A DNA stretch of 62,251 nt, filler included, from Kipferlia bialata (Eukaryota), in NCBI GenBank assembly GCA_003568945.1. It is 6 parts of 6 records of this genome, joined end to end, with 100 filler letters (N's around TTAATTAATTAA, not from the genome) between each part and the next. Parts side by side here need not be neighbours in the genome. Positions count along the whole stretch, not along the records: positions 9,708 to 21,755 come from BDIP01001138.1; positions 21,856 to 33,903 come from BDIP01001139.1; positions 34,004 to 46,045 come from BDIP01001140.1; positions 46,146 to 58,182 come from BDIP01001141.1; 2 more parts are not named here. One strand, written 5' to 3'. The notes under the pieces are model-generated. The model ran no database searches and had not been told where the DNA came from. It was given only the letters and a program-made list of their open reading frames with translations. The position numbers and the translations under genes were made by a program. Below are positions 9,741 to 57,316 of this stretch, one piece after another. How positions within the stretch are numbered: the stretch's first letter is position 1; each line of letters starts with the position of its first letter.

Positions 9741-12700
9741 CTACGAGTACATGACCACACAGTTCAGGTGGGTGTATTTGCATAGGTCTTTGTATGAATA
9801 CATATTTTCTATATGTTTACATATTGTATATATACCCTTACCATACGTTATGTGAATATCCGTTGCTGTTACTGTTACATACGAGTACATGACCACACAG
9901 CTGAGGTGGGTGTATATAGTATATATATATAGTATATAGTATATATATATAGTATATATATAGTATATATAGTATATATATATATATATCAATATGACCA
10001 CACAGCTGAGGTGGGTGTATATACCCTTACTGTTTTCTCTCTGCACCTCTCTCATCCCTAGGGGTCTGCCCTCCGAGTGTCCATAAGAATAGTATGTATA
10101 TTTATATATATATATATGTGTGTGTGTATGTGTATATCTTATGAATATGTCCCAAATGCTCTCACCCCTAGGGGTCTGCCCTCCGAGTGTCCAGTTGCAC
10201 TTCAAGTACCTACACCAGCTGGGGGTCTACTACTCCAGAGGTATGAATTGTGGCCACATATAATACAATACACCAGTTTGGGGTATATAGTATAGTGTGT
10301 ATATCTAGTGTATACTTATACAGTGTATTATAGTATAGTGTTGTATTCTCATACTCAGGCTTGTCATCCAGGAGAACGAGCAGCGTCTCGTTGCCTCCAG
10401 GCCCAGTCTACCCCACTACGGGACACTCCTGTCAGGTGGGGATATCTCTACCTGAATTGACCACCACCCCTCTGTTACATTCATGTGTGTAATATTCATA
10501 TATAAGTGTTCCCCTTACCTTACCCCAGGCCCCAAGGGCTCTGTCTCCCGTGTCTCAGCAGAGCAGGGCCCTGACAGGTCTCTACCCCCCGAGCTAGTGA
10601 TCGGTGACCCAGAGTCACTTCTGGAGACGAGGTCCCTCCTGTACCCACTCCACTACCCCATATACAGAAAGGTAAGCAAGTCCCATCTCTCACATTTACT
10701 CTCTCCCTCTCTCCTCTCTCCCTTCTGACTGTCAGTGGTGGCCCTACCTCTCCCTGTACATGACATCCCCCCAGATGTGTCTGCTGCTGACCGCCTTCAG
10801 TGTCTGTGTCAGGTAAGGCTTTTCAAATTCTAAACCGCGTGTATCTACATGCGCCTACAGTTACCATTGGTTTAGAAGACCCCAACTTTCCTCTACAAGT
10901 CCATGAACACTGCCGCGGGTAGGTATTCTACAAATGTCTGACCCCTAGCTTTGCCCTCAAGGCCCTTAACACTGTTGTTGGGGAGCTCAACTCCTCCCTG
11001 CCTGCCGATGCCCTGGTCAGTCGGACCATACCCGCCAAGCCAGTCGAGATACAGGTAATAGAGTAGTATATAGACATAGATACTTGTACATATCCAGTAT
11101 TACTATGTGATCCCTAATGTCTAGGTCCCTGTGAAGAGGGCCTCCCGTGCTGCCTCTCGGAGGCATAGGTCGAGGACTGACCCCCATATGGCTAACGTGG
11201 GCACTGCACCCATAGCAACACCGAAGACCACCAGCAAGAGCCATAAGAAGAAGGTGGCAGTGGCTGTGCCTGAGGTACCTGTAGCCAAGGTGGAGACCAA
11301 GCCTCCTGTAGTGGCTACCACTGTCACTGTCACTGCACCTGCCCCTGTAGTACCCGCAGTGCAGCCTGTGCCTATTGCCCAGGCTGTCAAGGTGGAGACT
11401 GTACAGGCACCATCTGCAGCACCTACTACTGTTACAGCACCTGTAACCACACAGCCTACTGTCCCTACTGCCACTCTCACTAAGACTGCTGGTGCTAGCC
11501 TAGCCGCTGTCGCCAAGGTGGAGCCTCTCGCATCTAGTACCTCTAGTACCTCTAGTGCCTCTAGTGCACCTGCCCAGCCTCTCCCTACCCCTGTCCCTGT
11601 CCCCACTGTGACTGAGGTACCTCCCAAGGCACAGGCACCCTCTGTTCAGACTGTACCTGAGGTCACTGCCGCTGTAGTAGAGACTGGGGATGTGCAGATG
11701 ACTGCATCTACCCAGCCAGAGACAGCCCCTGCCACTGTCACAAGTGGCGATGCCCCAACTGAGGTGGTCACTACAGCTGCACCTGCTGCTAGTGTGGCAG
11801 CCCCTGCTGAGCCTACCTCTAGTGTCACCCTCCCTGTCCCAGAGACACGCACTGCTCCCACTGTAGCCGTGGCTCCCACATGCACTGTAGAGCATGCACC
11901 TCCTGCTACTGCCATCACAGAGAGTGTCGGTGCTGTACAGCCCCCCATTGAGGTTACCCTCCCTGCCCCTGTGCCAGTTGAGGCACCTGTACCAGTCTCT
12001 CTCCCAGAGACCACTACCTCAGAGGCTGCTGCCACAGGAGATGTGGACATGGTATCTACTACACCCACGGATACACATGTACAGGAGGTCCTAGCAGCAA
12101 CTGTGCCTGTAGCACTGCCTGAGGGTGTGGCTCCCTCCATCCCTTCAGGGACTGGAGAGACTGTGCCTGTCACTGTACAAGGCACCACTGATGTCACAGC
12201 CACCCAGGGACCACAGGCTGTGGTCAGTCTCCCACAGGTGACCAGCACTGCTCCTGCTCTCCCAACCCAGGGTGCCCCTCTGACTGTTCAGCTGCCCACC
12301 CCCCTAGGGTCAGTGTCCACCCCTGTGCCAGTGGCAGAGGGTACAGGCACTGTCCTCCCTGCCCCTGCCCAGCCCTCTGTCCTGTCTGACCCCATGCTCT
12401 CAGTCACCCAGGCACCCACCCTCTCCATCATGCTGCCCTCACCCGTACCCTCACAGTCTGTGCTGCCAGTACAGGGAGAGGCCACCAACACGGTCACAAT
12501 CCCTCCCTCCCAGCTGTCGCAGCAGGTGCCAGCCCCTATGCCCCAGGTTACGGTACCCCCTGTACCGGTCGAGGCTGCCCCTCTGCCTGACCCCTTCCTC
12601 CCCGTCCCCAGTCCCTCCAAGGACACTGACTCTACAGTGTGTGCACCCCCCTCTCCCTCGTCCCACCCCCTCCCCACCTCTGTGCCCGTGTGCCTACCTA

Positions 12701-15653
12701 CTGTGCCTGTTGACACTGTCCCTACACAGCCTGCAGCAGGGCTGGAGCCTGTCCTGCCTGTCCAGCCCATGCTACTGGCCAGTGGGGTGGGTACAGTGAC
12801 ACTGACACAGAAACAGGGGCAGACACATACCCAGACGCAGAGTCAGACCAAGGTGGATGTACAGGCCAAGCCTCCCACACACCGCGTGCGTCTCGTGTCA
12901 CTCCCCGTGGCTCTCCCCGCCCCTGCCCCTGTTGCATCTCTGCCCACCCCCTCCATCCCATGTGCTACCCTGCAGACTGGGGAGGGAGTGACTCTCCCTG
13001 TTAGTGACGGTCCCCTGCCCAAGGCACTGGATACACCTGTAGATAGTGCCTCCACAGTACCCACTGCACCTACTGGGTCTGTTGGAGTGCAGGGACAAAG
13101 TGATGTAGAGATGGTGGCCCCTGGGGGGTCTGGTACCCACACCCCCATTCCAGAGGTGTCGGAGCTCCACGACCCCCTCCCCCCTCCTTCGACCGTGGCT
13201 GCAGTGCTTGCTGGTACTGTGTCTCCCACCGTCAGCAAGCCAGGTCCCGCCCAGCCTGTAGCCTCTACTTCTGATGCTTCATCATCACTGATCATCGACT
13301 CTGCCGCCCCTACCGCCCTAGCCCCCTCTGGTGGGTCTAGGTCAGGGGACACCGCCATGCACTGTAGAGTGATTGACACCGACACGGAGGACAGCAGTGA
13401 GACGTCAATGGTACCTGAGGGAGAGAGAGAGAGAGAGGCTGTCAAGGGGGAGCCCAAGATGCCCGAGGTGCCTGGGATGCCGGCACTGCAGCTCGAGGAC
13501 AGCGACATGGTATGTGCTATATATGTACATGATCTCTCTCTCCCTCTCTGTGTGTGTCTCTCTCTCCCTCTCTGACCCCTAGGACATGACACCTTCTGAG
13601 CAGGAGAGACTCCATGCTGCAGTCTCCCCCCACAAGGCCACTCTGCGTACAGACCCTAAGGAGACAGTCCCCACCATAGCTGAGGTAGCTACACCAGCTA
13701 CACCAGCCAGGGTCAAGAAGGAGAGAGAGAGAGAGAGAGAGACACTCGCATCCTCCAGGCCCTCCAGGGCACACACCCGCAATGTCAGGGAGAGGGAGAG
13801 GGAGAGAGAGAGAGAGGCACACAGGGAGCAGGAGACACAGTATGAGACGAAGATCGTGCCCCCCTCCGAGCAGAGACTGCCCAGCTGGACTAGCGAGACA
13901 CTCCTCTCTGACTTTGAGGGGCTGACAGCAGGTATATCAGTCCTAACAATGTAGTATATACATTGCTTGGTATATATATTATAATGTATATTCACTTGGC
14001 ATTCCTGTCAGACTTTGAGGGGTTGATGGCAGGTATCAGTCCTAACAATGTAGTATATACATTGCTATACATCAATATATATATGTCGATAATACAGAAT
14101 GTACATGCTATGCTGACGATTCTTAGACACCAACCCCAGGCCCTCTATTCACCCTTCTGCTCCACAACGTATCCTCCCCCAAGCCCATCGATGTGCCCAC
14201 TGCCCTGGCCTCTGCCCTAGTATCTGCCACATGCCTCAACGAGCAGAAGCAGAGGTATTGATAGATACATGTAATGTATAGTATATATATATATATATAT
14301 ATATATATTGGTATAAGTATGGGTATGGGTGCCCTGGTATCTGTCACATGCCTCAATGAGCAGAAGCAGAGGTATGTATACACATATACAGATATATATG
14401 AGTATGAATATATGTATGTGTGTGCATATATGGGTAGAGGTGCCCTGGTATCTGCCACATGCCTCAACGAACATAAGCAGAGGTGGGTGTATGTATATGT
14501 TTGTTGTTATGAAGATTAAGAAGGAGATGTTGGAGTATACCTGGCTTCTCTCCCCCCATGTCTCTGCTCTCTCTCTCTCTCCTCCTCCTCTCTCTCTCTC
14601 TCTCTCCCCTCTCTCTCTATCTCTCTCCTTCTAACCCCTCAGTGACAAGACCAGGAAGGACAGGAAGGACAGGGAGGAGACACAGGTATTGTATATCACT
14701 CACATTATATATATTATATATATATTATATATATAGTATGTATATATACAATGATAGAGGGACAGGGACAGGTAGACAGAAAGGACAGGGAGGAGACACA
14801 GGTATGGATATGTGGTGATGGGTAGCTGCTCTAGTCTCTCTACCCCTCTCATCCCAGGCCCATAACACCGAGCCCTCCCCCCCCCCCTCTCTCTCTCTCT
14901 CTCTATATATATATGTATGTATGTATACAGTGATGACGATATACCCCTCACATCAGGCCCATGACACCGAGCCCGGTCTCATTGCCGGTCACACAGGCAT
15001 CCACCCGGAGCTGCTGCTAGTGCTGCAGGTACTCAGTCCCTATCCGTATTAGTGCATAAATATTGATACATGTTTGTTCACGTGTGTATATACCTACCCT
15101 CACCCCCAGGATTTCCTCAACACCCTCCGGACCAGCATCATATCTCTATATCCATATCAATCCATATCCATATATTCATATATCTATTCATATACACACA
15201 CCCTTATCCGCAGGACTTCCTCAACACCCTCAGGACCAGCATCACCTCCATGCCCCAGATCAGTGGGAGGGCAGCCAGAAGAGCACGGTGAGTGGACACT
15301 ATACTGTATTGTTTATAGTATATATGCTATGTCAGTGGTAGGGCAGCCAGGAGGGCTCGGTGAGTATATGTGTATATATATGTATATACTCAATAGTATA
15401 CGGTATTAAGAGGGAGTATGCCTATCACTTGTGTTGTGGGTTATATTGATACTGATACTGACACTGGTCGAAGTACCCAATGAGTGTCTCTTCCATCTGT
15501 CTTAGTATCTCTTCTGTCTCTCTCTCACACCCAGTCGTCGCTCTGTGTCCCGCCCCTCTGCCCTCAACGTGGCCACACCCACTGCAGCACACGCGGCACT
15601 CAAGCCAAGTGCGTAGATACTATGTATATATATATATGTGTGTGTGAGTGTGA

Positions 15654-15695
<42 letters not shown>

Positions 15696-15920
15696 GCCAC
15701 ACCCACTGCGGCACACGCTGCACTCAAGCCAAGTATGTATACATGGATATGGTACTAATAGAGATAGTATTTTTATATACACTATGACAGTCCATCTATA
15801 TCTCACCCCCAGGCTCAGCCCACTCTAGGTCAGAGAGAGAGAGACAGAGAGGGAGAGAGGCAGGACACCGCGGTGGTCCCTACGATGCCAACGTTCCCAG
15901 TGGTACGTAACTCTCCACAA

Positions 15921-15957
<37 letters not shown>

Positions 15958-17853
15958 GTACCTCTCTCCCCCTAGCCCCTTATTCCTCACTGTCAGATGC
16001 CGGTCAGAAGGACACCTCTGGTTGCAAGGCGGACTATGTAGGCTACCCCAACACTAGGAGTGGGTCGATGAAGGCTGGGCAGCCGCTGGAGGAGGAGGTA
16101 TGTATGCGTATATATATGAATATTCATTAATATATGAATGTGTTTTCTATACATTGACACATTCAATATTCATAGACGGTTATTAGAGGAGGAGGTATGA
16201 CTGCACGTGTAAGATACATACAATTTACTCATGTACACGCACTTTATCATACTGACCCTCCAGCCCTACCACCTCACCTGGGGAGAGCGCAACCTGCCTG
16301 CCCACCTCCTGTGCACAATGCCCCACATACAAGTACAAGTAAGTAGTATATATATAGATGTATATACATATATATACATACAGGTGCAGGTGCGGGCATG
16401 TGTGTATAGATATGTAGATTCATAGTAATATATATGTGTGTTAATGTATTGAAGCTATATATTTCCTCTATTCAACCCCCTGTGCACCATATAGGTGGCA
16501 CTACCTTATGTCTGTCTCTATTGCGTGTTGTATTTACAAGTGTACGTCTCCCCCCAGCTTGCCCTTCTAGCTGACCAATACATATACATCATAGATACAT
16601 TATATATGTATTTGTTTTTCTATATTTATCATTATATGTATATATACTGATATCCAACCCCAGCTTGCCCTTCTAGCTGACCAGTCCGACCCCACCAGCG
16701 ACACCCAGACAGAGCAGCCCAGGGAGGGGTACTGCGAGCCAGTCCAGGCCACATACCACTCCGTATCAATCTCTGAGGTATGGTATATGGAGAGATAATA
16801 GTATATGTATTATTGTGTATTTTTAATAGTGTAATATATAGTAGTATATATAGTGGGACCTCTCTCCCTCCACCCCCTTATACCAGGCTGGCATCGATGT
16901 GCAGCACGTGACCTCTGAGGGTGAGGGAGAGGGTCACCAGACCATTGTGCCTGGGCTCAAGGACCAGAGAGAGAACCCCGCCCTCGCTGCCCTAGGGCCA
17001 TGCATACCCAAGGAGAGGGAGAGAGAGGGAGAGAGAGAGGGTGCCGAGGCCAAGGCCAAGGCGGTGTCTGGACTCAGGCCCTCCCCCGCCACACATATGG
17101 GAGAGAGAGAGAGACCCACGTCCAGGCCTAGGGAGAGAGAGACCCCGCGCCAGAGGGGAGACGTCACAATGCTACCAAGCACATCCCCTAGCAGGTATAG
17201 ACACCACATCATATATGATAGTAACATGAATGGCTAGATGTAGTGATATATATGCTCTTCTCTGATGCCAGGATCACCCCCTCCTCCCACGGTCCCCCCC
17301 ACCTCAGGGACAGGGACACTACCCTCCACACCACACCACACAGCAGGAAGTGGGAGAGAGAGAGAGAGAGGCCCGAGATCAAGAGAGAGAGAGAGGGCGG
17401 ACTGCCCCAGAGGATCCAGGCTGAGAGGGAGAGAGAGAGAGAGAGAGAGAGAGAAAGGGAGAGAGAGAGACTCCAGGGCAGACCCTCGAGACGGCTCGCG
17501 GAATACGAGAGAGAGAGAGAGAGGAAGAACGAGGAGGCCGAGGGTAAGAGGGAGAGAGACCGTGACGGAGAGCGTGAGAGAGACAGGGTAGAGGGAGAGA
17601 AGTCCCAGGCTCCCAGCAGCGGAGGCCCATACCCCAACCGTAACAGGTACACATATTCACAGTATAGTCTTACCGCCCACCGTATATGACTACACAATGT
17701 TCTCTATATGTACATATATATACATATACTCACGCCAGGTACAATAGGAGCTGGGACGGCGGCAGGGGGAGAGAGAGCCGCGAGAGAGACCTCGGCCCTA
17801 GGAGGGGACCAGGCTCCAAGGACTTCAGAAGGGGTCCAAGGGACAGGTGGTGA
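9741..17853 (+). CDS. Large hypothetical multi-exon protein with an ~800-aa Pro/Thr/Val/Ala low-complexity exon and an Arg/Glu-rich C-terminus; 5'-partial
   Basis: Chain of GT-AG exons (10172-10240, 10359-10435, 11125-13509, 14141-14254 etc.). Last exon ends ...RRGPRDRW with TGA at 17851-17853. No family recognised. Confidence 0.65.
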
Positions 17854-18560: not shown

Positions 18561-19665
18561 GTCCATATCCATATCTATTATTAGTCAGTATGACAATGTC
18601 GTTTACATACCATAATAGACCTCTAACCTACCTAATCACTGACAAATGGGTGGATAGGAAGTTGAACAGCAGTAAAATACTAGGCCTAGTACTATATATA
18701 TACCTATGCTCAGTATAGGCTACTGTTCATAGTATGAACTTCATATTGTTGAACAGTATTTCTCCTGACGGGAGTCTGATTGTGTTATTGGGATTGCATT
18801 CGCTGAATCCTTGATAATAGCCACATGGGCTGTCACTCCCTATATAGACCCCCCCCTAGTACGAAAGTGTCTATATGGCCTCTGTATTTACCCCTCTTTT
18901 GACTCCCGGTACCTATATAGAGTATATATCATTATAGACCGGGTCTAAAATAGACCCTACTCAAGTTTGTGCTACCCCCACGGTGGGGGCCCCACCCCCG
19001 AATTTCACCTATCCTTCCATGTCTCATACCCTGTACCATACTCTACACTCTATTACCATATGTACCAGATACATAATTTTCAACATGGCATTTGTGATGC
19101 AAGTACATGTGTGTCTGACTCCCACCCTTCTCCCTCTCTCCCCCCGCCCCACCTAACTTCGTGGTACGCCGAGATTACATTGTCTCCGAAAGATAGAGCG
19201 AGGGTGTCTCCCAGACTCTGAGGGGAGGAAGCATAAGGAGCAATATATATATGGACACACTACAACAAGCACAATCAAAGCTGAATACATGTTACTGCAA
19301 GCCTCTGCTTCGTGCCGCTTTGACCCCGTGTACTCACTGTGTTTAGCTGTACCTATACAGATACCCCTGTATGTGAATGTATGCCCTGTGACTCTAAGCC
19401 TAATAGGCATTGCCTATACCTGCATGACCCTACCAGTGGTGATTTCATACTGCACCATGTCTCGAACACTAGTTTGGAGTGACTCTGTTGCTCTTATATT
19501 GCATATGGACTCCATATGCAATCCATATTATGGAGGCTCTGTTAGCTGAAGGACATAGTGTATCATTGATGGTGGGAACGGAGTTGCCAAATATGATATT
19601 TGGAATATCTGCCAAGAGATACCTTACTTGCCAGGAAATAGCTTACGATAGGCTGGACAGATAGT

Positions 19666-20709
19666 ATGGCCCAAAGTACGCAACCACTCTCTCAAGTTAC
19701 GGACCGTAACCTCTCTATCTTTTCATCGTTACAGGGGTTAAACGGCACCAAATACCTGTCTCCAGGACACGTTTTCCCCATGACACACAAGTTACCACTC
19801 TTCTTCGAGCACTCTACAGTGACCACTGAGCTGTCTCCATGGGTAGATGGTGCAGATGTGGGACACAACACTGCTTTCTACTACTCTTATCAGGAGGATG
19901 TTGCGCGCACATTCCATCTGAGTGAAGAGGGGTCTATGTCGGACTCTGCTGTCGCTCAGTTCTCAGGTATTCACAGTAATGTGGGGCTATCATTGATGGG
20001 TGGAGTGCTCTATGGGTTTTCAGAGAACACGCTTGTATCGATGCGACTTGACACCCAAACACCAAGTCGCGAGTCCCTCCCCCGAACCACAAGAGGTTTT
20101 GCCTCCAACAGTCACGGTTTCATACTAGATGGATTCCTGTACCTGTTGCACTCAATATACACTTCGTCCATCGGCTACCAACCACAGACACTCTGTCGTG
20201 ACACTGAACACCGTAGAGCTGGGTGGAGGTCACTGGACTATACTACACCTGTGCTGTGCAAGACAAGAATGCACCTGCCAGTGATAGACGGCCGAGCCTA
20301 TGGAGTGACCAAAACAGGGCTAGTGGTGACCTTCCACCCACTCAGTGGGTGGACCCACTGTTCCCAAAGCCCTATCCCAGACTGGAATACTAGATACGCT
20401 AACCTTGTCTTCTTACTCCCACTAGGACGGTATCTATTCGTATCCAAGAGGTCAAGCGTAATTCCCGGCCAACCAAGGGTGTACCGCTGGACGGCATTCG
20501 ATACCATTTCTGGAGAGATTGGACGTCTGCAAGACTGTGATTTCAGTGGACGTGCCGGGATCCTCTCTCCTGCCCTTGCCGTGCCCTCTCCTCCTAACCA
20601 CCTGCACTACATCGACCCAGGGCTAGTCTATCCACACCCCGAAATGAGGTGGGCCAGTATTCCCCCGGCTGCTGTTGTTACACAGTGCCCTGAAGATGAA
20701 GGGGACTGA
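19666..20709 (+). CDS. Divergent Kelch-like beta-propeller family protein
   Basis: 347-aa ORF with strand-like repeats (MGGVLYGF, LDGFLYLL, IDGRAYGV, LGRYLFV…AFDTISGE) and C-terminal LVYPHPEMRWA, shared with the gene at 41094-42460. Confidence 0.6.
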   Translation: MAQSTQPLSQVTDRNLSIFSSLQGLNGTKYLSPGHVFPMTHKLPLFFEHSTVTTELSPWVDGADVGHNTAFYYSYQEDVARTFHLSEEGSMSDSAVAQFSGIHSNVGLSLMGGVLYGFSENTLVSMRLDTQTPSRESLPRTTRGFASNSHGFILDGFLYLLHSIYTSSIGYQPQTLCRDTEHRRAGWRSLDYTTPVLCKTRMHLPVIDGRAYGVTKTGLVVTFHPLSGWTHCSQSPIPDWNTRYANLVFLLPLGRYLFVSKRSSVIPGQPRVYRWTAFDTISGEIGRLQDCDFSGRAGILSPALAVPSPPNHLHYIDPGLVYPHPEMRWASIPPAAVVTQCPEDEGD

Positions 20710-24392: not shown

Positions 24393-24598
24393 GTGTGAGA
24401 GAGAGAGACACTCTCTCTCGGAGGAAGGGGAGAGTGAGATATATATGTGATATACCGTAGGTAGACAGACGTAGCCATCCATTCATTTGGCGTTCTCATA
24501 GGAGCTTTCTACGCGTTGTGGTTAATCCAATAGACACAGTGTCCGCTAAGAACACACGCAGATCTACATGACTCTATTGACACATCCTACTACAGCTC

Positions 24599-32148: not shown

Positions 32149-32256
32149 CTGGGTTATAAGTGGATAGTGTGTGTGTGTGGGGGGGGATATGTAGAATGGA
32201 GAGACAGAGAGAGAGAGAGATCACGCACATCCCTGGGTCAGACACATGTACAGAGT

Positions 32257-40100: not shown

Positions 40101-40271
40101 GAACCAGACGGCGGCACAGAGTACGTAATGTTCCAAACCGATCAGCTGATTGACCTCATCATCATCGCCAAGACAGGGGCCGGACATGAGAGCATCAAGG
40201 TCACCATGGACAAGCTGGGGAATGGGACTCTGAACTGCGATATTGTCCCAACCAACAATAACAATGCATAA
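34131..40271 (+). CDS. About 2000-aa Cys-rich acidic protein with tandem carboxypeptidase-regulatory-like repeats; probable paralogue of the gene at 76-7521; 5'-partial
   Basis: Two small exons, then one ~5.8-kb exon (34461-40271, internal N gap 37621-37749). Repeats such as ISGTVTGETGESVPGVDVSI…TTDVNGFYEI and LSGTVTDSDSGLGIAGVMVTV…TDAAGFYMI. TAA at 40269-40271. Confidence 0.8.
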
Positions 40272-42460: not shown

Positions 42461-42583
42461 GTGGGGAGTCAGGCAGAGGAAGAGACACTCGACTGGGGTG
42501 AGACATAGACGGACGGGGGCGGCGGGGGGGGGGGGGGGGGGGGGGGGGTTGAAGGTCAGAGGAAGAGAAAGAGGGTGGTGTAC

Positions 42584-43550: not shown

Positions 43551-43806
43551 GTCTCAGTGGTGCTGGTATCGGGTAAGAGAGGTGGCTGCTTGCTTCCTTG
43601 GCTTGCCAAACTCTCTAGCGTAAGGGTGCAGTGTTTTTGTCTGTTTTGACCTAGTTCGTGATCTGCCCACCACTCAACTTCTCATTGGCTGAGGCAGTCG
43701 ACCGTACTTACCAGATACCCATGAGTCCTTGATGCAGTCACCAGGAAAACCTATTGGTGCTGATACTGATGCGTCAGAGGATTCTGGTCGCGCTACCTCT
43801 CTTGAG

Positions 43807-46187: not shown

Positions 46188-46455
46188 CTAGGTGTATGGG
46201 TACATATAATTTCACAGGAACATAGACTGAATGAGTAGTACATTAGGACTGCCACTCATCTCAGCCCCTGCCACTTCACCAGAGACTATATAAATACATA
46301 GATCTCTATATATACATATAGATAGACGTATCCACCAGGACATATGTAGCGTGTATGCCCATCTCTACCCCTGCCCCCTTCATCAGAGACTCTATATACA
46401 TAAATATAGATAGGTATAACAGATGCAGTAGGATACTTGCAGTATATACACTCAC

Positions 46456-47393
46456 CTCTGCCCCTGCCCCCTTCATCAGGTAGTCATCCTCATCATCGTC
46501 ATCTGGGGTGAGATATATACATGGATTGGCAAACATATCAAGGGAGAGAGTAAATAGTGGAAGAGTCAATCGTCATCTGGGGTGAGATACACATTGGGGC
46601 ATATACATGTATATATATATATATATATACAGAGAGAGAGATACACTTTTGAACAGACATCCAGATACAGATGAAGAGAGCACACAAAAGGGGACTGAAA
46701 TCAACATGAATACAGTTGCACTCACAGTGGTGTATGGTAGTCAGATGGCAGGTATAATACTACAACACAGACACAATGGGCGGATATAGGTAGCAAATAT
46801 AGCAAAAACACAATACACAGAGATAGGGAGACCCATAGGCATATATATCATGCACATATACACCTTCTACACCCACCTTCTGGCTCCATCTCCTCCATGG
46901 CGTCGAACCCGTCCAGCACCTTCTCCAGGTCTATCTGGTCCAGGTCTATGATGCCGTCCTCCTCCCCCTCTGCCCCTCCCTCAACCTCCATCCCATTGTC
47001 CTCCTCGTCTGTCGACAGCAGCTCAGGGTCAATCTCTCCCTCATCCTCCTCCTCCTCGTCGTCTGTCTCCCCTGTGATGTACTGCCCCTCGTCCATATCA
47101 CTCATCTCCTGCCCCTCCTCCTCTGCAGTCCTCTCAGCAATCTCATCCACAACCTCCTTCAGGGAGTCGTTAGACATCTCAATCTGGGACCAGACCTGCT
47201 CAAAGTGCAGCCCCTCCGTAATAAGCTCGGGCATGGGGGGTGTGGTGTGGGGATAAGTGGCGAAATGGTCGTAGAACTGCTTTGTGAGGCCCATGAAGGT
47301 CGAGGCGAGCTCAGCGCCATCTACCTCAGCCCCAATCAGTGCAGATGCCTGCTCCTCACACTGAGTGAGCAGAGCATCAATCTGGGCGTCCAT
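46456..47393 (-). CDS. MPP10: U3 snoRNP protein Mpp10, N-terminal part; 3'-partial at scaffold end
   Basis: PMPELITEGLHFEQVWSQIEM matches the Mpp10 P(L)xxLxxxGFDxEQIWQQ motif and is followed by the typical acidic tract. Exons 47393-46877 and 46502-46456. Confidence 0.75.
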
Positions 47394-47527
47394 AGCTGCC
47401 TCAACTCCAGCTCTGAAGATGCGAAGAGGGAAGAGTTGTTTTTGAGTCGGGTTGACTGCACCCTTTCTTACTGGCCTACACCCTTACACCCCAAAGGTGT
47501 TTGCCTTCTTCTCTCAAGCCCAGAGCA

Positions 47528-48395
47528 ATGCCAAGAGGCCAATTCAGGGGACCTGTGACCAAGGAGATCAGGGAAAGGTGCGTGTCAGTGTCAAATAATA
47601 GCTGTCTTCTATATGAGTTTTGTTTGGAACATTCGCAAACGTCCATTTTCCCATTCTCAGTTGGTTTTACCCTGTTCCCGTCCTCATAGAGTGATATTTC
47701 TCGGTCTAAAGGCAGTAGTATGGGGTCCTATGCATAATGTGACATGTCATTAGTGTTTTAGAAGCATAGGTTTGCATATTCGACTCCCTGTCTTCATCGC
47801 CCTGACCCCAGGTTAAAGACTGGCAACCTCTTTTCCCTTGAGGAGCTGAGGGATGCCATGCAGCATGTGGTGAGGTCCATAGGAGTCGATGCCAAGAAGG
47901 ACTTTGAGCAGCTGTTCCACCTGGAGAGTGTGTACAAGGTATTTGAGTACTCAATACATTATTATTGCATTACATTACCTACATTCACCCTGTATAGTAG
48001 TCTCTTCACATCTCCCCACCCTTCTCTACACTGCAATGTACCTCCAGTGGTCATCCCTCTCGCAGCAGGATCCATTTGCTACTGGACTGGCAACGCAAAC
48101 ACACACTCTGTATTGTTCTCACTCCCTTCTCCTTTCATTTATATCCCTCCCCCACGCTTACCCTAGGACCTCTTTGCTACTGAGCAGCCCCCCCAGCTCT
48201 CTCTCTCTATATATATAAGTATATCAAGTTGTATGTGTCTCTAACATATCAGGACCTCTTTGCCACTGAGCAGCCCACCCTCTCCTGTGTCTCTCTCTAT
48301 ATATGAGTATTCATATGAGTTATTCTTTGTTTTTGTATATGCCTAGTACTTAGCGTCAGGACCTCTTTGCCACTGAGCAGCCCACCCTGTCCGGC

Positions 48396-48427
<32 letters not shown>

Positions 48428-49369
48428 TCTTTCTCTCTATCTCTATAAGTATATCAAAGTTGTATACGTCTCTAACATGTCAGGACCTCTTTGCCACTGA
48501 GCAGCCCACCCTCTCTCTCTCTCTCTCTCTCCCCCCCCCATCTTTCTCTCTATAAGTATATCAAAGTTGTATATGTCTCTTACATGCCAGGATCTCTTTG
48601 CCACTGAGCAGCCCACCCTGTCTGGCCCCTCTCTGGTCAGGTCCAATGAGGAGTACACTAGCACAATACAGAAGACAGTCGAGCAGCTGGAGGTATGTAT
48701 ATACATGTATATACACATATAACAATCTAGTTATGATACATTTCCAGTAATTCCCCCCTACCTCCCTCCCCCCGACCTCAGGCTGGAATAAACACCAGCA
48801 TGAACATATACTTATGTACTGTTCATACTACATATTCTCCTTTCTCTCCTTTCTTTTATGTCCTCACCCCAGGTTGGAGTCAACACCAGCATGAGGGGTA
48901 GCAGATCAGGGGCAGGATACCAGGTGAATATATGTGGATATTCCTACTATTATACACCTTCTCTACGTCATATAGTGTGTTGCATATACTATTTCATACT
49001 CAAATGAAAGTGTACTGTGGTAATTTCTCTGTTGTACCTTACCCCCAGGAGGTTGTGATTGAGCTGCACCGTGCCCTTCTCAAGCTCACTAGCACAGCCC
49101 TGGCACAGAGGCAGGACAGACAGGCGGTGATTGAGGTATGTATATTGGATATGTATTTATATATATAGAGAGAGAGAGAGAGTATGTATCAGCACAGCCC
49201 TGGCCCAGAGGCAGGTTAGACAGGCAGTGATAGAGGTATGTTCAGTGTATGAGTAATTAGCATTCCTATATGGAGGGACTAATTCCCACCACAGGCCATG
49301 TTCTCTGACCTTGAGTCCCGGGGTGTCTCCAGGGACAAGCTGCCAGAGCCCCTCCCACTCCAGCTCTAG
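47528..49369 (+). CDS. Hypothetical helical protein of about 170 aa, 6 exons
   Basis: MPRGQFRGPVTKEIRER|LKTGNLFSLEELRDAM…VYK|DLFATEQ…QLE|VGVNT…YQ|EVVIELHRALL…VIE|AMFSDLE…LQL* joins in frame. Confidence 0.65.
48167..48620 (+). repeat. Exon-echo array, acceptor type, 5 copies
   Basis: agGA(C/T)CTCTTTGC(C/T)ACTGAGCAGCCC repeated at about 48167, 48253, 48360, 48485 and 48591 (the real exon). Confidence 0.9.
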
Positions 49370-49830
49370 GGAGAGAGAGAGAGAGAGAGAGAGAGATTCT
49401 TTAAGACACAACTCTGAGATATTGTGGGAGAGTGTGTTGGTCTTCTGTCGGCCCCATCCATTGTGAGAAGTGTGTGTGTGTGTATCTCCTATATAGTGGC
49501 GGGTCGACAACCATGTAAATTGTACTGATATCAAGAAGAGTTTGGTTCCTCTAATTGTTGAATGCCTCATTCGAGATTAATGGACACATACCTCAAAGAT
49601 TATGAATATGTATATATATGCGTGTGTATATATAGCTGGCCAGTAGCCCTCCTACGGTAGCGAGTGGGGAATCGACAGTGAGCGAGATGCGACGTTTCAA
49701 ACGGTCGGTGGGAGCCCATGCTTTCTGATGTCTCTAGCCAACACTTTCCATTGACCCTGACAACTTGTCAAACCACACCCTTGACTGATACTGATCAGAT
49801 CACCCATAAGAGACACAAAGGACTAGATAG

Positions 49831-50169
49831 ATGTCCGTGTCACCCGTGAGAGTGCTGCACAAGGGGCTGGGGTGAGTATGAGTATAGTATGTGTGATAGT
49901 ATCCGTTGTAGTTGGTGTGTGTGTGTAGTTAGTCTATATACTAGATAGCTGCACAAGGGGCTCGGGTGAGTGACATCCACTTATCCTACCTCTCCCCCTT
50001 GTGTTTCCTTACTCCCTCACTACACCTCACTGTGGTCACTCAATACACTCACCCATTCTCTCTCTCTCTCTCTCATTGTCCCTATCTCTCTCCCCTTTAC
50101 CCCAAGCCCCCTTGCCCCCCTCACTGTGGCCATGTTATTCAACACAGGGTCAATGCTGGAGTCGCCAGG

Positions 50170-50215
<46 letters not shown>

Positions 50216-50323
50216 GTCTCGTTCTCCTTATGCTATTCAACACAGGGTCAATGCTGGAGTCACCAGGTGTTGTGTCTATCAAAGCTCTCATATCTATATC
50301 TCTCTCCCATCCCACTCAACATG

Positions 50324-50356
<33 letters not shown>

Positions 50357-53300
50357 GTCTCCCCCTCTCTCACACTCACTCTCTCTCTGTGTATATATAT
50401 GTCTCCCCCTCTCTCTCACTCACTCTCTCTCTGTGTATATATATGTCTCCCCCTCTCTCTCCCTCCCTGACTGTCAGAGGAGCACGGGGCAGCCCACTTG
50501 CTGGAGCACCTCTGCTTCAAGGTATTTATGATATGTATATTCATATACCATTTACTTACATTTGGATGTTCCATATATATCATAACCCCAGGGCACCGAG
50601 TCCCTCCCCTCCACCCACTCTGTCTCAATTGAGTAATTTGTGTGTACTGGAGACATGTATATACTGTGTATATTCCATATAGATGTGAACTAATCCTAGG
50701 GCACCGAGTCCCTCCCCTCCACCCACTCTCTCTTTGCCCATGTCGAACAGAGAGGGCTGGCCCTAGACGCATACACAGCTAGAGAGGTATAGAATACTCA
50801 ATGAATAGTATAACAATTATGTGGAGGAGAGTATACATAGTATGTAATAATAGTATGTATCTTCCTACCTCCTTCCCCACCCCTAGGGTAGGGCACCCGA
50901 GGTAGATACATAGTACTCATTCTATTGTATAGATATATTGTATACATTATACTATATGTATATATTATCCTATCATCATACTATGTATTTGTATACATTA
51001 TACTTTGCGCCTATTTCCAGGCATCATTTGCCTTGCTTGGGCGCTTTATGTATATACACTGAACACTTCATACTCTTCCTCTATATATATGGAGTATACC
51101 CCCTTATCCCCCAGGCTTGATATATATACCCACATATATGTATATATATATATACATATATCCTCTACCCCCAGGCCACCATGTTCCTTGCTAGGGCACC
51201 CGAGGCAGAGCAGGTCTCAGAGTGCACACAGCTACTAGGTATATACATACTTATATATATATATGTGTGTGTGTGTGTGTATGTGTGTGTGTGTGTGTAT
51301 ATTTATATNNNNNNNNNNNNNNNNNNNNNNNNNNNNNNNNNNNNNNNNNNNNNNNNNNNNNNNNNNNNNNNNNNNNNNNNNNNNNNNNNGTGAGACTGGT
51401 ACCAGAGGCAGAGCAGGTCTCAGAGTGCACACAGCTGCTAGGTAATGAGGCATATATGCTTATGTATATACACTCATATACTATGTATGTGAGACTAGTA
51501 CCAGAGGCAGAGCGGGTCTCAGAGTGCACACAGCTGCTAGGTAATGAATCCTTATGCATATTTGTTACTTTATATATATTGTGGTACACTGTGTATAAGT
51601 GTGAATACTGCTAGTACCCGAGGCAGAGCAGGTCTCAGAGTGCACACAGCTATTAGGTATATATGTGTGTTTACAATATGTACTTTTGTGGATTTATCTA
51701 ACCCCAGCCGACATGCTTGTGTCTGACCTTGCCCCCTCTGTCATAGACCAGGAGAGGGCAACGGTATTGGCAGAAGGTATATGTATATAGATATAAATGG
51801 TATATGTGTTTGTATATATATGGAAGCCTGCATGAATGACAACGTATATGTATGGAGAGATTATGTGAGTGAGAGAGAGGAGGGGGTACCGTAATTCGCA
51901 GAAGTTACTAATTGATAAAGTATTCCTGATTTCATTGCATATGGGTGTTCATGCTTCTTACTGTAGGCAATGAGGTTGCTGCCGATCCCTTTGAGACCCT
52001 AATGGATCTGTTGCACGTGGCAATGTACAGGTGTAGATATATGTATAGATATATGTATAGATATATGTATAGATATATGTATAGATATCCGTGTAGATAT
52101 CCATGTAGATATCCATGTAGATTTATATATCTCTCTCTTTAGCACACACACTTACCTCAGAGACACCAGCTCCCTCCATGCCTCTGGTGATGCCTCTGGG
52201 GTGCTCACATTCAACAGACCAGTTCTCGGGACAAGGTATAGTATATTCTAGTGTTTTCATATGTATGGATATACTGGTGTTGATCTATTGAACTGTATAT
52301 ATATACATTTTATGTGTTTGTGCCTCTGGGGTGCTCACATTCAACAGACCGGTGCTGGGGACAAGGTGTGTATGTGTATACTAAACAAGCCAAATTTATA
52401 CACTATATACTATGTACTCACATTCAACAGATCGATGCTGGGGACAAGGTATACCCACAAACACACATATGCATATATGTATTTTTATATGTTGAACACT
52501 GTTGTGTGAATATATACACACATTTAACAGACCAGGTCTCGGGACAAGGTATACCCGCACACACATATATATGTAAATATGGATATTTATATGTTTAAGG
52601 CGTTGTATGTATATACATACACATTCAACAGACCGGTGCTGGGGACAAGGTATGAGTGTGTCTACTAGTTACTAGGTATCCTCATTCATTTTTGTAGTTT
52701 ATCATGGTAATTCCCCTGACCCATGGACACCATCCAGACAATCTATTCTAATCTATAAACACACATATCTATACATGGGAAAGTAATCAATATTCTCTGA
52801 GTATTATTGATTACATATTCATATATATATATACAAACCCCTCACCCCCAGGACCACCATCCGGACAACTATGTATACATTCTAACATCTATCAATGCAC
52901 TTGTCTCTGTATCATATTGATACCGCAGGACCACCATCCAGGACGGACACATATATACTCATGTATACATATGTACATTTATATACATATATTTACATAT
53001 AACCAATTCTTATATACCCCCCCCCCCACCCCAGGACCACCATCCAGGACGGACTCAAGAAGGACCTGCTGCTCAAGTTCAGGTGGGGTTGTTGAAGTAG
53101 ACTATATCTATATATTCGTGTATGGAGAGAAATTAAGTACTTCTCAAGAAGGACCTGCTGCTCAAGTTCAGGTTGGTTTCATGCGTATGTCTAACATATA
53201 GGAAGTACATATCAGGTGGCTAGAATTCATAGTAGCAATGTATCTGTGAGTGTATGTAGAATGGACACTTCAAGTTCATGTGGGGTTACCAACGTATAAT

Positions 53301-56277
53301 CGCAGTTGTATGTAGCAACTATGCACTGTGTGGGTCTATGAACACACATACTATCTTTCGATTCATTCGTTCAGGTCATATGTATTTCTGTACACTATCT
53401 AACCCCCAGGTCCAAGGCCCACACCAACAGCCATGCCACCCTACTCGTGATGGGACCAGAGGTATCTCTCCCTCTCTCTGTATATCACTATACGTTTCAA
53501 TGTCATATCTCATTTCAAGGGTGTGACTGATCACACCCATGCTACTCTCCCTCTCTCTCCCAACTCTCTCTCTCTCTATTTACACTAATATCAAGGGAGA
53601 GATTGACCACCACACCCCCAGCATCCACCTGGCCAGTCCAATGATACAGGGTATGATATGATATACTCTATATGTGTATATACACTGATACCGATGGCAC
53701 TGAATATAGGATATTGATACAGACACATAGTGTACTAGATAGAGAGAGAGAGAGAGAGTACTAACATGGCAGAGGGCACAGACAAGACAGAGGGAGGGAG
53801 ACTGCCCAGCAGGAGTGACGAGGAGAGATGCCTGGTCAGGGAGTACCACCCAAGGTACCCATGCACACTACTACTTGTATGTAATTTATATATATATACT
53901 CAGGGTATCCATATCAATAACACGCATTCTCTCCGCCACTTTTCACTCAGCCCTCCCCCTCCCATATCCACTGCATACTATAATGACTGGTATTGTGACT
54001 ATGTTTCATGGTAACCTTACTCTTCAGAGCCATCCACTAGAGTCTCACTATATATGTATATACATTAGTATATTTCTTCTATATTCACTTTATACATACA
54101 CTTACAACAGAGCCATGCATTCAGTGGTCCCTCATCATCCACTTAGCCTTATCCATATGTCACCATATACAGATATGTATATATATCGCTATACTTACAA
54201 TAGAGCCATGCACTCCATGGTCCCAACTGTCCACTTTGCCCTATCCCTCCCCATGCCATCCCCCCAGAGCCATGCATTCCCAGCATCGTTTGGACTGTCT
54301 GCCGCATTGACAGCGGCACTTCCCTTGCCCTTTAGGTACTACTCTCTCTACACGTACANNNNNNNNNNNNNNNNNNNNNNNNNNNNNNNNNNNNNNNNNN
54401 NNNNNNNNNNNNNNNNNNNNNNNNNNNNNNNNNNNNNNNNNNNNNNNNNNNNNNNNNNTGTCATCCACTCCTGTGCAGTGCTCTCTCTCCCTCCCTCTCT
54501 CCTGTATATATATGTAAATGGATATTTGTGTATGGATATACTAACACCCAGGTGTGTGATGTCATCCACTCCTGTGCAGTTCTCTCTCTCCCTCCCTCTC
54601 TCCTGTATATATATATGTGTATGTATATATATTGATATGTATATATACTAACATCCAGGTGTGATGTCTCCTCTCTAACTATATGTATATATATATATAT
54701 GTACTTATCTCCAGGTGTGTGATGTCATCCACTCCTGTATGCTGGCAGCAGAGGAGAGGGCACAGGACGATATATACGCAGGTAGAGTATGGTATATATA
54801 CACACACATATATATACACCTCACCGCTATATACAAACACTCTCTGAGTGCTATATAGAAATGTACTACAATACTTTCATTCACCGCTAGGAGGCGTGGC
54901 AGCTACCATTGCCGCCAACACCACCACTGGTCTATCCATAGCACAGCAGATGGCACCATGTCTGCACACCAAGTATGAGGTATAGTGAGAGTATAGTGAG
55001 TGTATACACGTGACATGTGTATATATAGTGTCTGGAGGGTATATGAACCAATATTTATAATAATAATGTATGTACCACGCTAACACGTCTACATACTCTA
55101 ACTCAAGGACACAGACACTCTTATCCGCGAGATATTCCAGCCAGTCTCTGTCAGTATGATGACATCCCCGTCCTGTCCCATATCTCGCGGATCAGGGGAG
55201 GAGACCAAGAATGACGTCTATCTCTCGGGTATGTAGTGTACTCGTCGTATTGCGGGTGTTTCTTCTATACTAGAGTATTAAGCACCTGAAACAAATAGCA
55301 CGTATAATTATATATGTAAGAAGTGATTGTTACCCCAAGTGCCTGCCCCCAAGAGCACCCTAGTGATTACATAAATATTTTGACTTTTTGTATTTATGAC
55401 CTCTATATACATATATTTTTGTATTATTTAATAATACTATATCTCACCCCAGGCGCCTGCTCCCACGCCCCCACCAAGAGCACCCTGGACTGGGGCCTGG
55501 AGAGAGACATTGCATTTGCAGCACTGGTGGAGGGGGTGGCAGTCCCACACGCCAAGGTATGAGTATATGTATTAACTGATACACTTCCCATGTCGGATAG
55601 ATGTAAAAAAGAAAATTGTATTATTATATTTTTTAAAAATATCTTAATATTCTTTACTGCTCTAGTATTACTATATACTTCAGCACTGGTGGAGGGGGTG
55701 GCAGTCCCACATGCAAAGGTGTGTACTAGTCTATACTAGTGTATATATACTAGTCTATACTCTAGTTAGATGATGCATAGTGTAAGTCTTCTTGATACAC
55801 ATGCTGCAGCACTGGTGGAGGGGGTGGCAGTCCCACACGCCAAGGTATATAATGTTTATACATGCACTATACTCGTGACTCATCCGAAGACATTCCTGCC
55901 CATATTCTCAAGTTTAGGGGGATATACATCTCTCTCTCTTATCTAACCTATATCTCTCTTGTCTTGTTATAGTATGTCTCAAGTGTTCTCACCCCAGGAC
56001 CTCCCTGCCCATGACGCATCCTCCCCAGACACAGTCATGGTACGGACCTATACTAGACCTAGTATTCTATTTGTATTTAACAATATACTAATGAAATATG
56101 TGCTGTGCATATCTTCTCTCCCTCTCTTCCAATACACTTACTTGTATACTACTAACCCTCTAGGCCCTTGACGTTGGCTTTGGCCGTGTGCAACGCGAGA
56201 TACCCCTAGACACTGAGGGACTGGACCTACCAACCTTGGAGGAGATGAGGGATGTGATATTCTACGGCCCTTACTAA
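49831..56277 (+). CDS. M16B zinc peptidase, beta-subunit-like mitochondrial/MRO processing peptidase
   Basis: Spliced GSMLESPEEHGAAHLLEHLCFKGT (HxxEH) …LDAYTARE…LLADML…IDQERATVLAE…RPVLGT; ends LPTLEEMRDVIFYGPY with TAA at 56275-56277. Start codon uncertain; two internal N gaps. Confidence 0.8.
52031..52122 (+). repeat. 12-bp intronic minisatellite (GTAGATATCCAT / ATAGATATATGT)
   Basis: About 7 tandem units directly after a donor site. Confidence 0.8.
52192..52652 (+). repeat. Exon-echo array, donor type, 5 copies
   Basis: CACATTCAACAGACC…GGGACAAG|gt repeated five times with unrelated AT-rich spacers. Confidence 0.9.
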
Positions 56278-56523
56278 AGGGTCTTTTGTGTATATAATCC
56301 TGCATGAATAGATACCACTAGACACAGAGGGTCTGGATCTATCCACCTTATAGGAGAAGAATTATTGCCGTTTTGGGTTGTCATATATATTGAACTTGTT
56401 CGAAGACATCAGTGTTTGATCCAATGGTGGAATTACTATGCAGTAGCTCTCAACAAGAAACCAAGTGGTTGATGGTAGAGGGCATTCATATTCAATATAC
56501 ATTCTATTGTCCTGTCTCTGCCC

Positions 56524-57316
56524 TCACTCCACCACGGCATATGCAAAGCTCTCCTGGGCAGCGAGATCAAAGGCGTCAAAGACCTCTAGCAGCAGATAGT
56601 TGCCTGCCAGAAGGTCTTGGGGAGACATGTGGAACCTACTACAGTACGTCACTGGTCCTCTAGCCTCACTACTCCAAGGGGTGTCGTCGAGATCCTTCTC
56701 CTCCCAGGCCAGGTGGTCACGCAGAGACTCCATCATCACTAGGGTGAGACACTAGACACTGTGGATATGGTAATGTATTGATAACGATCCAATAATGTTC
56801 GTATATAATGTATACTCTGTATACAAGAGTCGAACAGAGACTCCATCATCACTCGGGTGAGAAGGCATGAGAGAGTAGTAGTGCATACTTTCGCACTGAG
56901 TATATGTATTCACAACAGTCAAATATCACCCACGTCATCTACCACTCACCTGATGCCTCCCGAATCAGATCGATGGACATCTCTTTCTCTCCAAAAAGGA
57001 GCTCCTTTATGGGGCCTAGACCAGCCTCTGCTAGAATCTCAGCAGTTGATGGGTCAACAACTGCCTCCTTACATATCTGGCGATCCGAAAGTGGCAGCAC
57101 CGCCTCTATAGCAGCTAGTGCCTCAGTGTTCCAGGGCTCTAGCAGCTGAATGCGTCTGTAGCCTGCCACGTAGACTGGGATGAAGTAACGCGGCCAGGGA
57201 CCGCCGCTTCCGATGCGGAAGCTGACTAACTCAGACGACATGCATCCATACTCGTCCTCCCTTTCATCAGCTGTTCCGTCTGGGTTAGTCAGCCACACTG
57301 TCAGGTATGTACCCAT
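56524..57316 (-). CDS. Hypothetical protein, 2 exons
   Basis: Exons 57316-56950 and 56738-56524 join in frame (…IREAS|VMMESLRD…AVVE*). Confidence 0.65.

Follow-up and report, generated by a model that had tools for sequence, protein, structure and literature searches.

The window analysed here, a 62,251-nucleotide stretch of six joined records from Kipferlia bialata (GenBank assembly GCA_003568945.1), holds genes in which copies of exon edges recur within the adjoining introns. We refer to these copies as echoes, and all statistics rest on this window. Gene models were built by hand and supplied the reading frames, which were checked against RNA only within 46190-52020; a candidate exon at 10861 was dropped from its model to keep the frame. 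Echoes were identified using a repeat scan and an edge-anchored scan of 146 exon edges (73 donor, 73 acceptor). The cut-off was a score of at least 10, reached by 7 of 10,256 unrelated edge-intron pairs. At this cut-off, the modelled edges gave 44 matches in 29 clusters. The matches at 42570 (low-complexity chance match) and 30599 (misaligned through a 6-nt deletion) were dropped from the "clean" counts, results being given with and without them. The 9742 cluster, which has no parent exon, and the cluster of the 54268 exon, whose frame is ambiguous, were left uncounted. So were copies scoring below 10; omitting these weak, older copies may miss non-synonymous changes, and the simulations used the same filter. 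The features are as follows, with differences from the exon given as synonymous/non-synonymous.

9742-10020, + strand: three donor-type copies (9742, 9880, 9994), parent exon off this scaffold (repeat scan)
10062-10083, + strand: acceptor echo of exon 10172-10240, no differences in 22 nt (edge scan)
14003-14066, + strand: donor echo of exon 13583-13931 (repeat and edge scans)
14330-14482, + strand: two donor echoes of exon 14140-14254 (edge scan)
14775-14875, + strand: donor echo (14775) and acceptor echo (14858) in the same intron (edge scan)
15110-15140, + strand: acceptor echo, 2/0 (edge scan)
15332-15359, + strand: donor echo, 4/0 (edge scan)
15695-15732, + strand: donor echo, 2/0 (edge scan)
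16558-16577, + strand: acceptor echo, identical (edge scan)
22948-23053, + strand: 19-nt direct repeat containing AG|GT, flanking a candidate intron (repeat scan, gene model)
24402-24437, + strand: 3' UTR copy of a CDS end (final ~36 nt with the stop codon)
27120-27151, - strand: donor echo, 2/0 (edge scan)
29804-29829, - strand: copy of near-donor exon sequence, donor end lost; uncounted
30532-30726, - strand: three donor echoes of exon 30890-30821 (edge scan)
31228-31346, - strand: two acceptor echoes of exon 31178-31116, 3/0 and 2/0 (edge scan)
32218-32232, - strand: acceptor echo, identical (edge scan)
42757-42780, - strand: donor echo, 0/1 (edge scan)
46260-46589, - strand: Mpp10 gene, two donor echoes whose GT has become AT; short acceptor echo at 46569-46589
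48167-48516, + strand: four acceptor echoes upstream of exon 48591-48692, all skipped in RNA
48782-48803, + strand: acceptor echo, 1/2, skipped in RNA
49191-49235, + strand: donor echo, three silent codons and one changed codon, skipped in RNA
49948-50625, + strand: presumed M16-type peptidase gene with two donor echoes (49948, 50230) and one acceptor echo (50592)
51401-51656, + strand: three donor echoes of exon 51175-51238 (edge scan)
52321-52649, + strand: four donor echoes of exon 52161-52235 (edge scan)
52852-53171, + strand: three echoes of exon 53035-53082 (two acceptor, one donor), without differences over the counted part
54028-54575, + strand: acceptor-type copies around exon 54268-54335 (frame ambiguous, uncounted) and of exon 54715-54781 (54552 counted)
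55681-55844, + strand: two donor echoes of exon 55453-55556, one 2/0 and one identical (edge scan)
56309-56359, + strand: near-terminal coding sequence copied in the 3' UTR; differences mostly silent, splice site absent
56835-56851, - strand: acceptor echo, identical (edge scan)

The product of the gene at 49948-50625 contains an HXXEH motif, and we take it to be an M16-type peptidase. Of six single exons scanned against Pfam, two received names (Ras/Roc and DUF4485).

The exon-edge echoes are real. They occur in 26 of the 75 modelled introns on four scaffolds, in line with the first-pass annotation's estimate of about 25 introns on four scaffolds; because genes were modelled for bearing echoes, this fraction is not a genome rate. 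The echoes group by gene (26/75 versus 0/24 introns), which could reflect programmed break hotspots, although selection could explain this grouping too. Each echo carries 11-45 exonic nt from a single edge rather than a whole exon with both splice sites. The unit length has a median of 103.5 nt and lies between 72 and 130 nt in 38 of 42 echoes. As first described, the copies keep their GT or AG (40/42), and donor echoes lie downstream of the exon and acceptor echoes upstream. This polarity is strict, the reversed arrangement matching in 0 of 146 edge tests. Inverted copies gave three weak matches in 140 tests at a 99.5th-percentile threshold.

The physical structure was evaluated by comparing the window over 46190-52020 with contigs from DNA and RNA runs of one sample. 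None of the runs is recorded as RNA; X2 was taken as such based on spliced joints that are absent from X1. Runs X3 and X4, which bear the same species label but come from another sample, shared next to no words with the window and gave no evidence either way. Independently built DNA-run contigs bridged 6 of 14 echo junctions with at least 31 letters on each side and no other letters, so the tandem structure in the first-pass annotation is present in them. At four to five of these six junctions, the bridging contigs were at single-copy depth. Specifically, four had depths of 415-426, contigs of spacer alone had depths of 426-446, and one bridging contig was shallower (325 versus ~425). Bridging at single-copy depth makes stitched haplotypes very unlikely. 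In RNA, five joints with canonical ends skip eight echoes, and the pieces 48589-48690, 49045-49133 and 50698-50787 carry the exon's own letters and no others. Thus, in the main isoform, the authentic outer splice site is used and the echo sites are silent; rare isoforms are invisible in contigs. The joint 50787 to 51616 is ambiguous: it was placed on an echo, yet 22 of its letters are those of the true exon, a bin with zero RNA depth, which suggests that the exon was masked and the joint misplaced. On this evidence, echoes are genuine tandem duplications in the DNA, each of ~100 bases, and the main mRNA passes over them wherever it was checked.

Differences between echo and exon are predominantly silent. 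In the full set, unique differences were 47 synonymous and 23 non-synonymous over 838 sites, with 44 of the 70 at third codon positions. The corresponding dN/dS was 0.21 (CI 0.12-0.36; cluster bootstrap 0.11-0.35). Conditioning on the base-change spectrum or on CpG left it at 0.19-0.23, and we rejected both as the source of the bias. The hand counts in the first-pass annotation were reproduced for the echoes at 15332 (4/0), 52321 (3/0), 15110, 15695 and 55681 (2/0 each) and 49191; for 27151, the recount gave 2/0 instead of 3/0. Its 4/2 for 14330 and 14441 together agrees with the per-echo count, the unique differences being 3/2.

Its neutral expectation, a quarter to a third synonymous, was too low. 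Since the exon keeps accepting silent changes, an echo of the same exon compared with its living parent should show a synonymous share of 0.41-0.48. The full set rejects this null (47/70, P 4e-4; range over the tests 1e-4 to 6e-4). Simulated self-duplication likewise gave 0.41-0.45, with a 97.5th percentile of at most 0.62 and P of at most 0.006 for the observed data, while simulated allele models with synonymous diversity of 0.1-0.3 gave 0.64-0.70. The observed share was 0.70 (45/64), or 35/46 using one echo per cluster. The earlier statement that echoes are not simply decayed tandem duplications thus holds for the full set against the corrected null but weakens without the hand-picked echoes: removing these nine gave a dN/dS of 0.28 (CI 0.14-0.54) and P 0.046, and removing their whole clusters gave P 0.059. 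Differences private to a single echo (13 synonymous, 10 non-synonymous) were above neutral (P 0.01) and near the self-duplication value. The predicted increase in non-synonymous change farther from the exon was weak (10 in 812 nt versus 9 in 422 nt). Conversion of an echo solely with its own exon was rejected on the argument that dN/dS would stay at ~0.5.

The intron parts of the units behave differently from the exon parts. Spacers are usually unrelated, as had been noted: of 43 adjacent flank pairs, 5 showed likeness at p<0.01 and 9 did so at p<0.05, with a median p of 0.24. Near-identity of units through the intron part was confined to a few arrays, such as 48167-48590. In that array, three spacers are homologous in the manner of a minisatellite, and it looks self-amplified; the 52417/52519 and 30726 units also have shared spacers. 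By contrast, the identical echoes of 29 and 40 nt (53143 and 55805) have flanks that are unrelated from the first intron bases. Base skew in the spacers follows the intron end, with the donor side G-rich (+0.23) and the acceptor side C-rich (-0.34). We rejected a main route through random filler with target-site duplication, as it leaves the silent bias unexplained and the spacers carry this skew. Mosaics were also found. At 14003, 5 of 30 exonic positions differ (4 synonymous) versus 0 of 33 in the intron flank (Fisher P 0.02). The 52161 cluster contains two synonymous haplotypes in the order A exon, B, B', A', B, with all four combinations of haplotype and flank type. Such mosaics could come from conversion within one array.

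We consider it probable that echoes arise by exchange between divergent alleles with unalignable introns, ending in end-joining. Homology between such alleles would be confined to exons. Following a break within ~45 nt of an exon edge, one end would invade the other allele, and copying would run past the splice site into an intron without homology. With too little homology remaining to re-anneal, alternative end-joining to the other broken end would leave behind a displaced exon edge with some intron attached; the same product would result if offset breaks on two homologs were joined. Selection would retain only products that leave a whole exon, which would account for the strict polarity, and later unequal exchange and conversion may amplify and scramble the units. 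On this view, every echo would be the neutral and short-lived remnant of an allele that once functioned. According to passages of PMC8516963, metamonads are without Ku-type end-joining but keep meiotic genes, fornicates have two Dmc1 paralogs, and sex or parasex is unobserved in Metamonada. Inter-homolog end-joining and aborted gap repair are documented for mouse meiosis in parts of 10.1101/2020.06.23.168138. The tight ~100-nt unit is not explained by the allele-exchange mechanism.

Capture from divergent alleles, as first proposed, fits everything tested, but the second allele itself was not found. Over long exons, the DNA run gave one contig with flat depth and no other letters. No second contig at 90% likeness was present over 46775-48139 or 49505-49894 (flat depth 425.7 and 414.6). 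A protein search covering 94-301 aa returned one Mpp10 protein with one member, and metagenome scans for other isolates gave 78 and 86 pattern matches, none confirmed. We accordingly infer the allele-capture step, with allele diversity and intron hypervariability fitted rather than measured. These searches also bear on whether the donor was a paralog or homeolog from an old hybrid or polyploid state, joined by the same mechanism, instead of an allele met in sex. With such a donor, silent bias and mosaics would be expected just as with an allele, rare variants are collapsed in contigs and the protein search was limited to 94-301 aa; yet the single contig, the single protein and the many copies required for up to five variants per cluster make it improbable. 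Duplication of the exon's own edge alone, by the process behind splice-junction minisatellites, deserves more weight but is still unlikely. On this reading, the exon would keep gaining silent changes, AT-rich flanks would mutate fast and the excess over a dN/dS of 0.5 would be partly chance and partly window choice. The process is known in human genes (passages of PMC1557585), and the shared spacers, the private differences and the marginal P without hand-picked echoes all fit it. It is opposed by the full-set and simulation P values, by identical echoes with unrelated flanks and by the 14003 flank, identical though its exon part diverged.

The two remaining readings concern transcripts and assembly. 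Translation of echoes by unusual splicing or template switching, with protein selection keeping differences silent, would suit the silent bias and intact splice sites, and the joint placed at 51616 and the isoforms hidden in contigs leave it some room. The first-pass annotation had raised this route, but it is not supported for the main transcript, where the five joints bypass the echoes, the three RNA pieces carry exon letters and no others, and the 51616 joint has true-exon letters. Moreover, an echo has one splice edge without a partner site, and copies past stop codons are untranslatable in frame. We regard it as very improbable. Tandem stitching of haplotypes by the assembler is more improbable still. 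The DNA run is possibly the source sample, the evidence comes from contigs rather than long reads, one bridging contig is shallow and the unit length is near a common short-read length. Against this, independently built contigs bridge 6 of 14 junctions without other letters and mostly at single-copy depth; from stitched alleles, only part of that depth would be expected.

Where exons are duplicated in tandem and spliced in a mutually exclusive way, flanking introns also hold exon-derived copies with low dN/dS; echoes differ in comprising a single edge of 11-45 nt rather than an entire exon, and in being left out of the main mRNA. Echoes most closely resemble human splice-junction minisatellites and the products of meiotic inter-homolog end-joining. 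The minisatellites, in which the first monomer spans the exon-intron boundary, are described in passages of PMC1557585 for F7 IVS7, CBS IVS13, lamin B2, PDGF and 6-16. In echoes and minisatellites alike, the unit reiterates the splice site head-to-tail in the intron and the outermost authentic site is used, and the human monomers include some of 81-100 bp. The human cases are single loci with near-identical monomers, whereas echoes, in one to four units, occupy 26 of 75 modelled introns and occur at donors and acceptors alike as well as beyond stop codons; their intron parts are mostly unrelated and their exon parts differ silently. In mouse meiosis, offset breaks or aborted repair can join two homologs non-homologously and yield a direct tandem duplication with haplotype switches. 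Direct tandem duplication is likewise present in the bridged junctions here, and the low dN/dS and the mosaics would imply that the two copies come from two haplotypes. The mouse events are rare and occur mainly without ATM and at hotspot pairs (parts of 10.1101/2020.06.23.168138); in K. bialata the products would be frequent and fixed, with a length of ~100 bp and limits set by exon-intron edges.

Copies also follow 2 of 9 CDS ends examined (24402-24437 and 56309-56359), where no splice site is required, and the process thus looks DNA-level. The modelled 87-nt intron at 22964-23050 has the 19-nt AG|GT direct repeat at both ends, and its removal leaves an open frame. This anatomy matches intron gain by tandem duplication or double-strand-break repair, for which passages of PMC3443670 give two routes, a duplicated AGGT-bearing exon segment or direct repeats around filler. 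From its sequence, the intron is a candidate product of the echo-forming process. Most echoes differ from intron gain in sitting in existing introns and creating none, and allele-derived, silent-biased copies are not described in those passages of the review.

Tentatively, K. bialata may be a recombining, hyperdiverse species (synonymous diversity 0.1-0.3) with unalignable introns, in which exon-to-exon recombination routinely fails at exon edges and files allele fragments into introns. If so, one homozygous-looking genome would contain many thousands of fossil alleles. It would serve in effect as a sample of the population and would document sex in a lineage in which sex is unobserved. Introns would lengthen in ~100-nt steps, new ones would sometimes be created, and the spliceosome would be shown to pick sites by exon definition. 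With ~124,912 introns in K. bialata (PMC5874029), even a modest echo rate means thousands of cases. As captured alleles, echoes would testify to exchange, allow allelic diversity to be estimated and map recombination, all from a single genome, and their variants would predict alleles of isolates yet unsequenced. Echoes provide a route by which introns can grow or arise, and they can mislead both the mapping of reads and the annotation of genes. They are also natural decoy tests: four intact-looking acceptors were passed over for the last, and the first donor was used. This pattern suggests exon definition in a short-intron protist whose spliceosome is reduced (87 of 174 proteins, PMC6679479).

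Exon models were built by hand for nine gene parts of Kipferlia bialata, a free-living, intron-rich fornicate, and for a control gene on scaffold 1. Frames were open in all nine gene parts, and exon 54268-54335 was left out as it had no fitting frame. All statistics were drawn from the window, which comprises six scaffolds with N-linkers between them. Echoes, intronic copies of the neighboring exon's edge with its GT or AG, were sought using a model-free repeat scan and a scan anchored on the 146 modelled exon edges. The latter yielded 44 matches in 29 clusters, including one chance match and one misaligned; 7 of 10,256 unrelated pairs reached the same score. Echoes were present in 26 of the 75 modelled introns. 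Their exonic part was 11-45 nt, the units had a median length of 103.5 nt (72-130 nt in 38 of 42), and the GT or AG was intact in 40/42. Reversed polarity was found at none of the 146 edges tested. The copies described in the first-pass annotation were thus borne out by both scans and proved more general than first described. In addition, a 3' UTR copy lay behind 2 of 9 CDS ends, with silent/changed differences of about 6/2 and 2/1 as counted by eye from the alignments.

The spread of echoes across genes is uneven. None of the 24 introns of the compact, GC3-rich gene on scaffold 1 contained one (Fisher P = 3e-4; the other genes were picked for having echoes), and the model-free scan found none on the last scaffold or in the multi-exon gene at 43800-45750 (+), which we take from its GHMP-kinase-like motifs to be phosphomevalonate-kinase-like. 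The scaffold-1 gene, at 76-7521 (+), encodes a partial 1,950-residue, cysteine-rich surface-type protein (24 introns of 56-81 nt, GC3 0.83, no echoes); a nearly intron-free gene resembling it lies at about 34130-40271.

Over 838 sites, echo and exon showed 47 synonymous and 23 non-synonymous differences when each was counted once per cluster; 44/70 fell in third positions. The expectation of a quarter to a third synonymous changes under neutral decay, adopted previously, is too low: the exon keeps taking silent changes after copying, so that the expected fraction is 2s/(1+s). For self-duplication, conditioning on the base-change spectrum and CpG gave a fraction of 0.46-0.48, and simulations passed through the same detection filter gave 0.41-0.45. 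The full set exceeds this expectation (P = 1e-4 to 6e-4; simulation P ≤ 0.006), with a dN/dS of 0.21 (CI 0.12-0.36). Accordingly, the claim that echoes are not simply decayed tandem duplications holds against the corrected null. When the nine echoes named in the first-pass annotation were dropped, dN/dS was 0.28 (CI 0.14-0.54) and P was 0.046; dropping their clusters weakened it to P = 0.059. Dropping named echoes tilts the test the opposite way, yet reveals the small sample. Synonymous/non-synonymous differences private to one echo numbered 13/10, and shared ones 8/0. Adjacent flank pairs were alike at p < 0.01 in only 5 of 43 cases, although with a median p of 0.24 a trace of homology may be present. 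Two echoes that match the exon perfectly, over 29 and 40 nt, carried unrelated flanks, which is not expected of a young self-copy of edge and intron. Overall, self-duplication as the only source is rather unlikely.

DNA contigs (run X1) were compared with 46190-52020, the figures being based on 8 of 61 pieces. These contained 0 letters differing from the window and bridged at least 6 of the 14 echo junctions in this region, with at least 31 letters on either side. Four bridged junctions were on contigs of depth 415-426, the single-copy depth; the remaining two shared one contig, of depth 325. Where contigs were mostly spacer, the depth was 426-446. Stitched haplotypes, the artefact that would undo the tandem structure, would give part depth, and the structure is thus supported. 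As X1 comprises assembled contigs rather than long reads and is possibly the assembly's own source sample, the bridging is strong though not independent proof. No second allele or close paralog in the culture was seen over the long exons of 46190-52020 (one X1 contig, flat depth). That assembly artefact makes the echoes is extremely improbable. The second run, X2, was treated as RNA, and its contigs carried canonical joints absent from X1. Five X2 joints skip eight echoes, with joint 47936 -> 48589 passing four acceptors in a row, and three pieces were letter-for-letter identical to exon. Joint 50787 -> 51616 was placed on an echo, with 22 letters that belong to the true exon left over, and RNA depth was absent in that exon's bin; we tentatively read this as masking. 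Contigs lose rare forms, and for the main isoform the suggestion that echoes are still translated by unusual splicing was not upheld. Hidden translation is very unlikely. At the present sample size, plain self-duplication, assembly error and main-isoform translation each fail to explain the echoes. Low-depth X2 intronic contigs at 47985-48150 (4.8) and 48249-48385 (3.7), versus 277, within the four-echo intron may stem from unspliced RNA, intron retention or DNA. At 50880-50910 (+), a decayed acceptor echo that has lost internal sequence resembles a 15-nt micro-exon between AG and GT; it was not included in the RNA contig.

A codon-aware pattern in untranslated DNA implies a source translated until recently, the simplest being another allele. 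Origin from other alleles is the best reading, and we infer a two-haplotype origin as somewhat probable. Allele models with fitted synonymous diversities of 0.1-0.3 reproduced the counts. Donation of the divergent copy by a paralog is distinctly improbable. In the proposed mechanism, alleles would be homologous in exons only. A break near an exon edge would invade the other allele and copy into its non-homologous intron; with less than ~45 nt of homology, re-annealing would fail, end-joining would follow, and the old edge and intron piece would stay as an echo. The identical product would result if two homologs were broken at offset positions. Selection would retain only products with the whole exon, resulting in polarity; the same logic would cover the copies after stop codons. 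The narrow unit length is outside what this mechanism accounts for. According to PMC8516963, metamonads lack Ku-dependent end-joining, wholly or partly retain alternative end-joining, and retain meiotic genes, with Dmc1 paralogs instead of Rad51A in fornicates; sex has so far not been observed in metamonads. The allele reading gives a sharp prediction for other isolates.

Donor spacers were G-skewed and acceptor spacers C-skewed. The acceptor-spacer skew fits that of real 3' intron parts (-0.34 versus -0.31); the donor-side control was near zero (-0.05), making that evidence weaker. In the donor echo at 14003 (exon 13583-13931), 5/30 exonic and 0/33 intronic positions differed (P = 0.02). Judged by sequence, mosaics here and in the 52161 cluster (four donor echoes) point to conversion. 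The 48167 array of four acceptor echoes shares spacers among its units and looks to have been amplified from itself, so more than one process is at work.

Human splice-junction minisatellites are similar in anatomy but are defined by near-identical units (PMC1557585), which echoes lack. Mouse meiotic inter-homolog end-joining (10.1101/2020.06.23.168138) resembles the proposed route, although for echoes the two-haplotype origin is putative. One intron is built like those gained by duplication (PMC3443670):

22948-23053 (+), 19-nt exact AG|GT-containing repeat bounding the modelled 87-nt intron 22964-23050, a candidate recently gained intron

Removing one repeat unit keeps the frame. Titles and abstract openings in the literature surveyed, which covered few subscription papers, contained no description of the Kipferlia pattern or of allele-derived exon-edge copies, nor did term searches of PMC5874029 and PMC6679479 return an echo description.

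The protein translated from one exon was 100% identical to a K. bialata Mpp10 record. CpG was far below expectation across the window, with observed/expected ratios of 0.34 in modelled CDS and 0.28 in introns. Three of 70 modelled introns, all in the peptidase gene, had AAG at the acceptor (50105-50106, 53594-53595, 55106-55107). In this expressed M16-type gene, exon 54268-54335 (+) misfits the frame, its most peptidase-like reading hitting TAG at the donor. Either this is a decayed copy of a whole exon whose true version lies inside the N gap 54359-54458, or the assembly may be in error. Members of an expanded Kelch-like family were as follows:

41660-42487 (-), Kelch-like exon
about 19400-20709 (+), Kelch-like family member

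A protein search with the former matched only K. bialata paralogs, four at 64-78% identity. Finally, a predicted Rab/Ras-type GTPase gene at 33325-26793 (-) has one open 22-exon frame whose exon 1 matches Pfam Ras/Roc. The GTPase domain presumably ends ahead of its usual last motif, and the predicted frame continues for ~1,030 more residues, starting with a coiled-coil-like stretch.
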